Notes: generated by a model from the sequence alone, not told the origin. DNA of 64,000 nucleotides from Gammaproteobacteria bacterium (GCA_015661095.1 JACVQI010000001.1:41-64040), one strand, 5' to 3'; positions 25,647 through 28,277 are shown, counted from the stretch's first letter. Numbers and translations: made by a program.

Positions 25647-28277
25647 TTACTCAATCACTCCGATCATTTTTTCATTATCCGTGATGATTCCATCAGGTAA
25701 TATTCCGGCTGATTTCCATCCCTGGATGATGTTCCCATCATTGACGGTGTAGGCCATTACCTTTATGCCATGCTCATGGGCGGTATGTATTAATTCACTG
25801 TTCACAACGGAATAGTGTGCATAAACCCAGTCAAGCTTCATTTGCGCTATAAATTCCAGGTCTTCCGGGGTAAGTTTTTTTGTATATTCCGTATCAAACC
25901 CCACCTGGCAATTACAACCATTCTTAATCGAACTCGCAAGATATTCATGAAAACTGTCAACGATGAAACGCTGTTTGTCCGGCTGTGTGGAGAGTATGCG
26001 CACCACTTCCCGGCTCAGATAAGCTAAATGCTTGATGTGTTCCTGGGGCTTTATCTCAATCAGCATGTTTATCTTGCCGGAGTATTTCTCCACTGCCTGT
26101 TCCAGGGTCAGTACGTCCGAATACGCGGGAATGGACCTTAATTCCTGCAGGGATAGATCGAGTATGAGTTTTTGTTCGCTACCGACGACGATAGTGGGAT
26201 CATGCAGCAGAACCAGTTCGCCATCACTGGTAAGCTGCACATCAACTTCAACCCAATTGAATGCCGAGGTCAAGATAGCGTCGAGTGCGGCAGCAGAGTT
26301 TTCCATGCCGGCTTCGCTCTCACCATTGATATTACCGCGGTGGGAGATAATGAGGGGTTGCGCCAACCCCTGGATACTCTTGAACTTCCTGTTATCAGAC
26401 CGGATTGCGTAACGATTTTTTTGTAACAGGTAATAGTGCACGGGAAATATCGTATCCACGTAGGACTTCGCCTGCTCGTATAACGTTGCATTCCCGCTAT
26501 CGGTCCGTATGGCCCGGTTATCGCGATTTGCCAGCCGGTATTGCTTGCGTAACCGATCAAATACAACTTCCTTGTCATTAAACCACAAGTGCATGCGCTC
26601 CAGCGTATCACCACCGAATGCATACACCACCCGGTTCACGGGCCAAGACGCTTCCGGTTGCACCAGGCTGACACCCAGATTGCAACTGTGTGATTCCAGT
26701 CCCAGCAAATCCATAATAGTTGCCGGTATGTCGTGCGAGCCAGCCACGCGATCCGAATACGATCGGTATTGTTTCAGTTCCTCGGCAGTCAAGCCCGCGA
26801 TGATCAACGGCACATCAAACCGCATTTCATAATTTTCCGTGATATTCCCCTCATTCACTATATGCGGCGCGTGATCGCCAGTGATCACCAGGATCGCATT
26901 GTCCCCATGCAACCGGTACCAGTCATAAAACTCCCCCAGCTGCTGATCAAGATACATATACGATTCCACCAGATCATGCACCACACCTTCGTCATCCGGA
27001 TAACGAAGCTGCCAATTGTTCGGCAGTGTATAAGGATCGTGTGTACTTAGTGTAAATAACGTTGCCAGAAATTTTTCACCGGGCTGGTGTTTCTCCGTAA
27101 GCCAGTCTGCGAGCTTTTTAAACATAACACTGTCATCGTACCCCCAGCCATAAACAGGTAGATTACCAGCCGGATCGTATTCGACGATTTCCTTGAAGCC
27201 CATGTCATTCAAATAAATTCTTTGCCGTTCGAAAGAAAGATCGCCGCCATGAAAATAAACCGTATCGTAACCCTGCCTGTTCAACTGTTCGGGAAAGCCG
27301 GTCAGGGTGATAGCAGGGTCATTCCATAAATAATTATTGAATGGATTTCCGGGCAGGCCGCTAAAAATAGCGGGAAGTGAAGTCACACTCTTTGTTCCCG
27401 GCGAGAAGAAATTCCGGAATTCAAGATTCTCGCCAGCTATCCTTTGCAGGTTGGGCATAATACCATTACCGCGGTATTTCCCGTACATCTCCTCCCGACT
27501 GATTCCTTCCAGTATCAGCAAAATGACACTCCTGCCATTCCCTTGATTACCGATGGATGAGCGCACAGCACAAATCGGATAATCGGGGTTGAGTAATGGC
27601 TCGTTCGGTGATTTGCCCTGTAGTTGTCTGAATACTTTAAAATGATCCCCGGTCAGCTGGAACTCTTCCAGTTTATAAGATTCTTTCACGAAATGACTCT
27701 GCACCAGCCATAATAAAGGCTGCCGGCCGCTCCAGAAATAGTGCTCCGGCAACAATGATGGCATGCTCTGGATTAAAACGGACAATAGCAACAAACATAC
27801 TGCCGTTAAGGAACCCCAGCCCGGGGAAATTCCGGTCCGGTGCATTCTCATCGACCTGATGCCGTAATATAGAACCAGCATGACCAGAGTAAATTCGAAG
27901 ACTACTCTATAAACAGGTATATTCGCGGCCAGGGAAGGCGACAAATGCCTGAGTTCAGAAAAGTAAAATAACAGGTCAGACGATGGCAACCTGCCAAAAA
28001 CAGCCTCGTAATGAAAACTGGCGATCTCGATCAGCAGAATGGGGCCTATACAAAACAGGAAGAATATATTTGCGATTCCCTTTTTTCTGATTATAAAAAG
28101 AATGCCACCGAGTAATAATCCAAAGGCAAACTCAGTTATGCCGCCGATCAAAACTTTTATCGGGTAATTTCCAGTTACAGTTTCCCAATGCTGCAGCAGA
28201 ATAATAAAATGCCTGCTGCAGGTTAAACAGGCCGAGTATAAAACCGCGAATAGAATAATCGATCGATTCTGTTGCAT
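25647..28277 (-). CDS. Membrane-anchored sulfatase-family (LtaS/EptA-like phosphoglycerol/phosphoethanolamine transferase) domain fused to a C-terminal glycerophosphodiester phosphodiesterase (GDPD) domain
   Basis: 876 aa ORF with about 5 N-terminal transmembrane helices. The central alkaline-phosphatase-superfamily domain has motifs ILLILEGISRE and TGDHAPH. The C-terminal GDPD domain has HRGN...E...FNWVEVDVQLTSDGELVLLHD. Confidence 0.7.
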   Translation of the reverse strand: MQQNRSIILFAVLYSACLTCSRHFIILLQHWETVTGNYPIKVLIGGITEFAFGLLLGGILFIIRKKGIANIFFLFCIGPILLIEIASFHYEAVFGRLPSSDLLFYFSELRHLSPSLAANIPVYRVVFEFTLVMLVLYYGIRSMRMHRTGISPGWGSLTAVCLLLLSVLIQSMPSLLPEHYFWSGRQPLLWLVQSHFVKESYKLEEFQLTGDHFKVFRQLQGKSPNEPLLNPDYPICAVRSSIGNQGNGRSVILLILEGISREEMYGKYRGNGIMPNLQRIAGENLEFRNFFSPGTKSVTSLPAIFSGLPGNPFNNYLWNDPAITLTGFPEQLNRQGYDTVYFHGGDLSFERQRIYLNDMGFKEIVEYDPAGNLPVYGWGYDDSVMFKKLADWLTEKHQPGEKFLATLFTLSTHDPYTLPNNWQLRYPDDEGVVHDLVESYMYLDQQLGEFYDWYRLHGDNAILVITGDHAPHIVNEGNITENYEMRFDVPLIIAGLTAEELKQYRSYSDRVAGSHDIPATIMDLLGLESHSCNLGVSLVQPEASWPVNRVVYAFGGDTLERMHLWFNDKEVVFDRLRKQYRLANRDNRAIRTDSGNATLYEQAKSYVDTIFPVHYYLLQKNRYAIRSDNRKFKSIQGLAQPLIISHRGNINGESEAGMENSAAALDAILTSAFNWVEVDVQLTSDGELVLLHDPTIVVGSEQKLILDLSLQELRSIPAYSDVLTLEQAVEKYSGKINMLIEIKPQEHIKHLAYLSREVVRILSTQPDKQRFIVDSFHEYLASSIKNGCNCQVGFDTEYTKKLTPEDLEFIAQMKLDWVYAHYSVVNSELIHTAHEHGIKVMAYTVNDGNIIQGWKSAGILPDGIITDNEKMIGVIE

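Follow-up and report, generated by a model that had tools for sequence, protein, structure and literature searches.

A rare LtaS-type transferase–phosphodiesterase fusion in a conserved pilin island as a candidate phosphoglycerol-decorating enzyme

A 64,000-nucleotide (nt) stretch of DNA from a Gammaproteobacteria bacterium (GCA_015661095.1 JACVQI010000001.1:41-64040; this whole stretch is called the window) encodes a protein in which a membrane-anchored transferase of the LtaS type is joined to a C-terminal glycerophosphodiester phosphodiesterase (GDPD) domain. The gene lies in a conserved island of glycosyltransferase genes together with pilA and pilSR. In our preferred interpretation, to which sequence relationships and analogy with characterized enzymes lend roughly even confidence, the LtaS-type domain would decorate the pilin glycan, or the pilin itself, with phosphoglycerol, and the GDPD domain would act as an editor. 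LtaS-family chemistry is already known; the new element would be the joining of a phosphodiesterase to a predicted glycerol phosphate (GroP) transferase of that family, together with its use in a pilin glycosylation island.

The fusion is encoded by a single open reading frame (ORF), whose parts are given below by window position and amino acid (aa) number.

25647..28277, minus strand: LtaS-type transferase–GDPD fusion, an intact ORF of 876 codons plus stop (stop codon 25647-25649)
27678..28277, minus strand: N-terminal membrane domain, aa 1-200 (hydropathy, AlphaFold2)
26688..27542, minus strand: alkaline-phosphatase-superfamily (Pfam Sulfatase) catalytic core, aa 246-530 (Pfam, family alignment)
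26403..26687, minus strand: C-terminal part of the LtaS-like module, spanning aa 531-625 and made up of four beta strands plus a long helix (AlphaFold2, conservation profile)
25650..26357, minus strand: GDPD TIM-barrel domain, aa 641-876 (Pfam, alignment, Foldseek)

A Pfam search matched Sulfatase (PF00884) to aa 251-526 with an E value of 7e-37 and GDPD (PF03009) to aa 652-868 with an E value of 2e-25, the latter at 90.7 bits against a gathering threshold of 23.6. Hydropathy predicts five N-terminal transmembrane helices (aa 7-25, 42-60, 68-86, 118-136, and 157-175), and the basic loops RKK and RSMRMHR that follow the second and fourth helices mark the cytoplasmic side, so that everything beyond aa ~175, that is, the C-terminal ~700 aa including the GDPD domain, is predicted to be periplasmic. 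A conserved motif, FHYEAVFGRLP, lies in a periplasmic loop at aa 88-98, and the linker between the LtaS-like module and the GDPD domain (aa 626-640) is poorly conserved. The AlphaFold2 model, for which a 40-sequence family alignment was the input, has a mean predicted local distance difference test score of 89.8 and a predicted template modeling score of 0.87. It consists, in order, of a helical membrane domain whose helices within aa 5-171 agree with the hydropathy prediction, an alpha/beta core, a subdomain of four strands and a long helix (aa 551-620), and, past a short linker, a beta/alpha barrel that begins at aa 642 and takes up the rest of the protein. The initial annotation had described a fusion of an alkaline-phosphatase-superfamily transferase with a periplasmic GDPD domain, and the intact ORF, the Pfam matches, and the confident model together bear out that the fusion is real. 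An assembly or frameshift artefact was ruled out by the existence of more than 100 full-length homologues carrying both domains.

The same annotation had called fusion to a GDPD domain uncommon, and searches agree: an exhaustive search retrieved 93 of 1.84 billion 50%-identity representatives at E ≤ 1e-30, of which ~60 are full-length fusions, and below these 93 there is a sharp fall to generic ~600-aa LtaS-like proteins at E ~1e-25. A word-indexed search with 90% clustering found 137 relatives, ~110 of them full length (~870-930 aa) with both Pfam domains. Source taxa include Gammaproteobacteria, Pseudomonadales, Desulfobacterales (among them Desulfotignum balticum), Acidobacteriota, Thermoanaerobaculia, Planctomycetota, Bdellovibrionales/Halobacteriovorax, Myxococcota/Polyangiales, and a Sulfitobacter metagenome-assembled genome (MAG). 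The architecture is thus rare yet old or mobile enough to span phyla. Public annotations of family members are all generic ("sulfatase-like"). Some genomes have two adjacent copies of the fusion. A Planctomycetota MAG (locus L006) carries two copies of the fusion as convergent paralogues (10001..12682 and 12722..15487), and at locus L035 (7923..13200) an ORF for a 640-aa LtaS-like protein and a 229-aa GDPD ORF, overlapping by 4 nt, are followed by a full-length fusion; the overlapping pair may be a split or decaying copy.

The transferase domain is assigned, on its sequence and modeled fold, to the LtaS branch of the alkaline-phosphatase superfamily, as a relative of the named enzymes and the orthologue of none. 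When the fusion sequence alone was searched against solved structures, the periplasmic domain of the uncharacterized Vibrio parahaemolyticus protein VP1736 (3lxq) came first (4e-29) and the Listeria lipoteichoic acid (LTA) primase LtaP second (2e-19). The family profile returned 3lxq (8e-51), LtaP 4uop (4e-35), and then LtaS entries 2w8d, 4uoo, and 2w5q, with no EptA, MCR, or EptC entry among its top 60 solved-structure matches. Foldseek with the fusion model gave a template modeling (TM) score of 0.80 for 3lxq and 0.64-0.74 for LtaP/LtaS; EptA (5fgn) and MCR-1 (9nww) first appeared at ranks 24-27 with a TM score of ~0.56. Of the "LtaS/EptA-type" label originally given to the domain, the LtaS half therefore stands, since both sequence and fold are closest to LtaS/LtaP. 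An EptA/PptA-type assignment was rejected, because the Pfam search found no EptA-type domain in the fusion and EptA and MCR-1 are distant in sequence and fold. The fusion scores far under the cutoffs of the named transferase models, reaching 49.3 bits against 970 for the LtaS equivalog (NCBIfam NF053595) and 38.4 bits (E 6e-10) against 572 for OpgB/MdoB phosphoglycerol transferase I (PRK12363).

With LtaS and LtaP the fusion shares five N-terminal transmembrane helices, an extracytoplasmic alkaline-phosphatase fold, and a C-terminal subdomain of beta sheet and long helix; the metal ligands are likewise conserved, and a hydroxyl residue at the start of a helix serves as the nucleophile or, in the fusion, is predicted to. 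It differs from them in having Ser rather than Thr as the predicted nucleophile, in coming from Gram-negative lineages without known LTA, and, from 3lxq as well, in the extra ~235-aa GDPD domain, which these proteins lack. Phosphoglycerol, phosphoethanolamine, and phosphocholine had all been put forward as possible modifications. Affinity to the LtaS clade, together with fusion to a glycerophosphodiester-specific fold, makes phosphoglycerol the likelier predicted cargo; the ethanolamine and choline forms, which are products of EptA/PptA-type enzymes, are disfavored.

Residue conservation was scored over a diverse set of 40 family members whose identity to the window protein ranges from 28 to 80%. 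The codons of the principal active-site residues are as follows.

27507-27509, minus strand: codon of E257, transferase metal ligand
27387-27389, minus strand: codon of S297, predicted transferase nucleophile
26871-26876, minus strand: codons of D468 and H469, transferase metal ligands
26337-26342, minus strand: codons of H646 and R647, GDPD HRG motif
26247-26249, minus strand: codon of E677, GDPD E-x-D motif
26202-26204, minus strand: codon of H692, second catalytic His of the GDPD domain

In the transferase, E257, D468, and H469 are invariant (40/40), and H343, R353, and H413 are each kept in 39 of the 40. The S297 column holds S, T, or C in all 40 members and, once the family is aligned with 15 ordinary ~600-aa LtaS-like proteins, S or T in 25 of 25 sequences. 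Nucleophiles of the alkaline-phosphatase fold sit at the N-terminus of a helix, and S297 begins helix 297-306 in the AlphaFold2 model. T295, which falls in what we take to be the G-T register of EptA/MCR-1, was rejected as the nucleophile, because its column varies (I/S/A/D/V/H/N/F/T) in the same 25-sequence alignment in which the S297 column is constantly S or T. T299 stands opposite the LtaP Thr in a phmmer alignment but is Gln in 30 of the 40 members, and the local register of that alignment against LtaP is therefore unreliable. The reference active sites are E255/T300/D475/H476 in Staphylococcus aureus LtaS and T530 in GacH (10.1101/337519), and residues of the fusion were mapped to LtaS by motif and by the numbering of that study rather than by superposition.

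In the GDPD domain, E677, D679, and H692 are invariant (40/40), H646, R647, and K743 are present in 39 of 40 members and E741 in 36 of 40, and E659/N660 and W817 are further key residues. The set matches, by alignment, catalytic residues H17, R18, E44, D46, H59, E119, and K121 of the Thermoanaerobacter tengcongensis enzyme 2pz0, which the domain also matches in fold (Foldseek TM score 0.81), along with GlpQ 5t9b and 9f5m. The domain therefore resembles the GDPD family at large (UgpQ/GlpQ, 2pz0, and the C-terminal domain of phage K gp155, 9f49/9f5m) in its TIM barrel and in the catalytic set of His/Arg, Glu/Asp/Glu metal ligands, second His, and Lys. It differs in being tethered to a periplasmic membrane transferase, whereas UgpQ and GlpQ are soluble nutritional enzymes. 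All named NCBIfam GDPD models score far below their cutoffs on the fusion, and the nearest named families are nutritional GDPDs (UgpQ, PRK09454, E 2e-11). Mean pairwise identity across the family alignment is 0.39 for the GDPD domain, 0.44 for the transferase core, and 0.25 for the membrane domain.

Because complete catalytic sets are conserved in both, the two domains are each expected, from their sequences, to be active enzymes. The active-site features singled out in the initial annotation were a Thr/Ser nucleophile, the metal ligands, and the GDPD catalytic His pair: the ligands, the pair (H646 of the HRG motif and second His H692), and the E-x-D motif between them are all present, and the nucleophile is predicted to be a Ser in a conserved column, with nearby T295 set aside. 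This conservation of the nucleophile, every metal ligand, and the full GDPD set across the 40 members essentially excludes a pseudoenzyme resembling YejM/PbgA (LapC), the non-catalytic lipopolysaccharide regulators, in which a regulatory or lipid-binding protein would happen to have a GDPD-like fold. PbgA/YejM structures (6xlp, 6v8q, and 5i5h) do occur among the fold and sequence matches, and the YejM model NF038282 matches at E 7e-7, but its score of 27.9 bits compares with a cutoff of 825, and LtaS/LtaP and 3lxq match better.

The gene island surrounding the fusion comprises the following elements.

30788..32398, minus strand: pilS, upstream of the fusion and co-directional
29462..30787, minus strand: pilR, upstream of the fusion and co-directional
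28280..29380, minus strand: family 2 glycosyltransferase (GT2) plus GtrA-domain protein, 366 aa, polyprenyl-phosphate-sugar synthase type (Pfam, NCBIfam)
23604..25637, minus strand: TMEM260-like (formerly DUF2723) membrane glycosyltransferase of the GT-C type with a tetratricopeptide repeat (TPR)-like C-terminus, 677 aa (Pfam, hydropathy)
23429..23443, minus strand: sigma-54-type -24/-12 element TGGCATCATAGCTGC, a pattern match only, ~98 nt upstream of the pilA start
22872..23330, minus strand: pilA, type IVa major pilin, 152 aa (Pfam, NCBIfam)
20865..22754, minus strand: polytopic membrane protein with a TPR-like C-terminus, 629 aa (hydropathy, homologue alignment)
19982..20839, minus strand: second GT2, 285 aa, AglJ/dolichyl-P-hexose-synthase-like, with two C-terminal transmembrane helices
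19245..19970, minus strand: methyltransferase
17993..19240, minus strand: family 4 glycosyltransferase (GT4)

The start codon of the fusion lies 2 nt past the stop codon of the GT2 + GtrA gene, the TMEM260-like gene starts 9 nt after the fusion stop codon, and a scan of the window found no terminator-like site between pilR and the GT2 + GtrA gene. The fusion had been placed "beside pilA" in a pilin modification array. It is in the same island, separated from pilA by the 677-aa TMEM260-like gene rather than immediately adjacent, and the array is a fair label for a gene packed among glycosyltransferases near pilA and pilSR in an island conserved in relatives. The -24/-12 element upstream of pilA is, as a motif match, consistent with PilR-dependent transcription, the loose sigma-54 pattern occurring at chance frequency across the window (41 matches versus 42 expected).

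On each side of pilA, a GT2 of the polyprenyl-P-sugar-synthase type is paired with a large polytopic membrane protein that ends in a TPR-like tail. By analogy, these pairs are arranged as in three-component systems for periplasmic glycosylation: the GT2 produces a lipid-P-sugar, which is flipped and then used by a GT-C transferase. A membrane domain followed by TPRs is what we take to be the architecture of TMEM260 and TMTC, the eukaryotic noncanonical protein O-mannosyltransferases, and the island may be a bacterial counterpart of these enzymes acting on pilin. The 629-aa protein has at least seven predicted transmembrane helices and, across seven homologues, an invariant DD (D39, D40) just after the first; it has no Pfam family match, and a distant relative at a Desulfobacterales locus (L012) matches PMT_2 with an E value of 2.9e-6. 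When its profile was compared with that of the TMEM260-like family, the TPR-like tails alone aligned (probability 35%), and against solved structures it matched TPR proteins only. Judged by the DD motif and the one PMT_2-matching relative, it is probably a GT-C-type transferase.

Conservation of this setting carries the link to pilin. Neighbors were examined at ~30 family loci, and the island is kept at all six gammaproteobacterial loci with long flanks (the window, L001, L002, L003, L087, and L088; 37-55% identity). These six share pilSR, the GT2/GtrA gene, the fusion, the TMEM260-like gene, one or two pilins, the 630-aa membrane/TPR protein, and a GT2. Additional genes vary and include unannotated membrane proteins of 513-604 aa, acyltransferase_3, methyltransferases, an OGT-like GT41 + TPR protein, and a sulfotransferase + TPR protein, and the gammaproteobacterial locus looks like a diversifying glycan-tailoring region. 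Relatives from Desulfobacterales are 35-37% identical to the window protein. At one of their loci (L012) the fusion is surrounded by PilR, two pilins, a TMEM260-like protein, three membrane/TPR proteins, and GT2s; at another (L014) PilR lies immediately upstream; and in Desulfotignum balticum (L004) a PMT_2 GT-C gene lies 68 nt upstream and two pilins are divergently transcribed. The pilins of the gammaproteobacterial and Desulfobacterales clades are of different types, and the modification genes are common to both. In a Thermoanaerobaculia locus (L017), a GT2 lies 16 nt downstream of the fusion and a pilin-like gene is 7 kb away. The pilin-linked members form two separate clades on a neighbor-joining tree.

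Several further features of these loci concern the pilins and their glycans. The window PilA has a GGGGG run, a globular part with 21% Ser+Thr, and a C-terminal disulfide loop ending in LPGACK; the sister islands have one pilin or two tandem paralogues, with 23-31% Ser+Thr. Sister islands (L003 7835..9940 and 19522..21444; L088 7769..9877 and 19520..21454; L087 1333..2433) encode an OGT-like (Glyco_transf_41) protein with TPRs and another TPR-rich protein, which in L088 also matches sulfotransferase domains, as well as acyltransferase_3 and several 513-604-aa proteins without a Pfam match. These extras point to extensive lineage-specific tailoring of pilin glycans. In L004 (5612..7978), the D. 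balticum pilins have a Cys pair made up of Cys29 and a C-terminal Cys, and the two genes are followed by one for a VKOR + DsbA/thioredoxin fusion protein, a possible dedicated pilin disulfide-forming enzyme. Downstream of the pilin island of the window (~7000..20000) there is a Wzm/Wzt-type glycan cluster with a UDP-GlcNAc 2-epimerase-like gene, an ABC-2 permease, an ABC ATPase with a long C-terminal extension, three methyltransferases, an asparagine-synthase-like gene, a fused dehydrogenase, and GT4; L001 likewise has Wzm/Wzt beside its island. The G+C content of the window is 0.32-0.35 at 10-14 kb and ~0.47 elsewhere, a dip suggestive of variable glycan genes gained by horizontal transfer.

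We propose that the fusion would be an inner-membrane enzyme with two activities, each exerted by a domain that faces the periplasm. In a first step, for which homology makes a strong case, Ser297 would attack the headgroup phosphate of phosphatidylglycerol (PG) at the E257/D468/H469 metal site, releasing diacylglycerol and leaving a covalent glycerol-phosphate-enzyme intermediate, from which sn-glycerol-1-phosphate would be handed to an acceptor hydroxyl. In a second step, suggested by the conserved gene order, the acceptor would belong to the type IV pilin system of the same island. It would most likely be a monosaccharide on a pilin Ser/Thr, placed there by the flanking polyprenyl-P-sugar synthase and GT-C enzyme, or alternatively a Ser/Thr/Tyr of the pilin itself, in a PptB-like manner; because polyprenyl-P-sugar synthases and GT-C-type transferases flank the gene, a pilin-linked sugar is no less likely than a pilin Ser/Thr to be the acceptor. 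In a third step, the weakest of the three, the fused GDPD domain would hydrolyze the new glycerophosphodiester and so limit, trim, or remove the decoration. A single polypeptide would be both writer and editor, and would control how much anionic phosphoglycerol the pilus surface carries, or its length.

A number of points weigh against this interpretation. Approximately 20 of the ~30 loci, from Acidobacteriota, Planctomycetota, the Sulfitobacter MAG, Halobacteriovorax, Azotimanducaceae, Myxococcota, and others, lack any neighboring gene for a pilin, GT-C, or GT2, so the core activity does not require pilin and the family is not intrinsically dedicated to it. Members lacking the GDPD domain exist (P0109 at L090 and a 646-aa member at L026); neither locus has a separate adjacent GDPD gene or a pilin link, and they give no clean evidence of a split gene. 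Searches of the accessible literature found no description of the fusion or of a pilin-island phosphoglycerol transferase. Joining a writer to its own eraser would seem pointless if the two activities were not regulated or ordered in space. GlpQ-type GDPDs accept only sn-glycerol-3-phosphodiesters and leave LtaS-type sn-1 polymers uncut (PMC7086022), which means that the fused GDPD domain may not act on the product of the transferase. Finally, the Wzm/Wzt export cluster 8.5-20 kb into the window could supply a non-pilin acceptor.

The last point and the pilin-free loci bear on a competing explanation that we regard as unlikely, though deserving of real weight: the same chemistry could act on a non-pilin glycan, whether an osmoregulated periplasmic glucan (OpgB-like), the lipopolysaccharide core or O-antigen, or the Wzm/Wzt polymer, in a general surface-glycan island. 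Outside the two pilin-linked clades, most members occur by themselves without a pilin in the vicinity, a Wzm/Wzt, GT4, and methyltransferase cluster lies directly downstream in both the window and L001, and the fusion has weak similarity to phosphoglycerol transferase I (PRK12363, E 6e-10). That last score, however, is 38 bits, far under the 572-bit cutoff. The fusion is packed between the GT2 + GtrA and TMEM260-like genes on the pilSR side of pilA, outside the Wzm/Wzt block, and the partners common to two phyla are pilins, GT-C, GT2, and PilR, not Wzm/Wzt. In Pseudomonas, pilA-adjacent genes are pilin accessory or modification genes (PMC11841053, 10.1101/2020.04.19.049825). The family chemistry is general, and in the clade of the window protein it is built into a pilin island.

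A role unrelated to pili, in catabolism or lipid remodeling, would have both domains hydrolytic, with PG stripped and glycerophosphodiesters split for phosphate or glycerol scavenging or for membrane remodeling. Many family members do lie in housekeeping or unrelated contexts, one locus (L089) has a PhoX phosphatase and a glycerol-3-phosphate dehydrogenase within 8 kb, and the nearest named GDPD families are the nutritional ones mentioned above. We consider this role very improbable, since it leaves the tight, conserved embedding among glycosyltransferases in the pilin islands of two phyla unexplained and since characterized LtaS-family enzymes are transferases (10.1101/337519). No phosphate-regulon signal was seen in the window, where no search aimed at one was made.

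The stereochemistry of the proposed editing step leaves two possibilities: either the specificity of the GDPD domain has shifted, which would be a novelty, or its substrate is something other than the transferase product. A speculative and rather unlikely extension of the first is that the domain is the first phosphodiesterase adapted to sn-glycerol-1-phosphate decorations. As an eraser, it would make phosphoglycerol on pili a reversible, self-contained write/erase switch of surface charge. Alternatively, it would cut on the glycerol side, as lysophospholipase-D-type GDPDs do, and bare a phosphomonoester, amounting to an ATP-independent phosphorylation of a periplasmic glycan or protein with PG as the phosphate source, in parallel to the two-step cover/uncover pathway of mannose-6-phosphate.

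In a different arrangement, which we judge improbable, the transferase would be a polymerase of short poly(glycerol-phosphate), a teichoic-acid-like chain, on a pilin glycan or a glycolipid, and the GDPD domain a ruler that trims the free end to control length or clears stalled product. A cognate hydrolase accompanies many polysaccharide synthases, the closest characterized relatives of the transferase are the LTA primase and synthase, the two domains are under similar sequence constraint, the phage K gp155 GDPD domain (9f49/9f5m) is among the closest solved GDPDs, and Bacillus subtilis GlpQ, a GDPD-fold enzyme, acts on wall teichoic acid GroP (PMC7086022). Yet the sequence offers no feature by which a polymerase could be told from an enzyme of single transfer, and LtaP, which performs a single transfer, outscores LtaS. 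We know of no LTA-like polymer on pili or in these Gram-negative lineages. Moreover, known GDPDs cleave the sn-3 enantiomer rather than the LtaS-type sn-1 polymer (PMC7086022).

Type IV pili serve adhesion, motility, DNA uptake, and phage attachment, and posttranslational modification adjusts the chemistry of their surface; in Neisseria, microcolony dispersal is controlled by a single phosphoglycerol. If our preferred interpretation of phosphoglycerol decoration with GDPD editing is true, an island that combines TMEM260-like GT-C glycosyltransferases with a phosphoglycerol transferase carrying its own phosphodiesterase would constitute a previously undescribed route of pilin decoration in environmental Gammaproteobacteria and Desulfobacterales. 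Should the GDPD domain act on LtaS-type products, it would bear on how sn-glycerol-1-phosphate decorations are removed and yield a tool enzyme. A function for the window protein would assign one to ~60-90 50%-identity clusters from at least six phyla.

Among known systems, pilins bearing phosphoglycerol or glycerophosphate provide a precedent for the product. Neisseria PptA and PptB are presumably EptA-like rather than LtaS-like. PptB puts phosphoglycerol on Ser93 of PilE (PMC8445170), PptA is a phosphoethanolamine/phosphocholine pilin transferase, and Geobacter PilA carries glycerophosphate on Tyr32 (PMC6201914), so that in both genera type IV pilins bear such a group, which alters pilus-pilus interaction. 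The Neisseria enzymes differ from the fusion in modifying the protein directly, in having no glycosyltransferase island beside pilE, and in having no GDPD domain. For the glycan, the comparison is with the Pseudomonas aeruginosa group IV pilin system TfpW/TfpX, in which a GT-C arabinosyltransferase uses a polyprenyl-P-sugar donor; there, accessory genes for the pilin are placed next to pilA, and a GT-C enzyme O-glycosylates the pilin in the periplasm (10.1101/2020.04.19.049825), as proposed here. That system belongs to other GT-C families, in place of the TMEM260-like and unclassified membrane/TPR proteins of our island, and has no phosphoglycerol transferase or GDPD domain.

For the transferase, characterized LtaS-family enzymes use a Thr nucleophile and a Mn2+ site to take sn-glycerol-1-phosphate from PG, releasing diacylglycerol (10.1101/337519). 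Streptococcal GacH/SccH differs from the fusion in having eleven transmembrane helices and forming a clade separate from LtaS (10.1101/337519), in its wall polysaccharide acceptor, and in lacking a GDPD domain, and GacH was not among the top solved-structure matches of the fusion by sequence or fold. It nevertheless belongs to the LtaS family, and its gene lies beside those for the polyprenyl-P-sugar synthase and GT-C enzyme that install the sugar to be decorated: GacH adds sn-Gro-1-P from PG to GlcNAc side chains installed by GacI/J/K/L through polyprenyl-P-GlcNAc and a GT-C transferase (10.1101/337519). In this pairing of sugar installation with phosphoglycerol transfer, GacH offers the best functional analogy for the logic of the pilin island.

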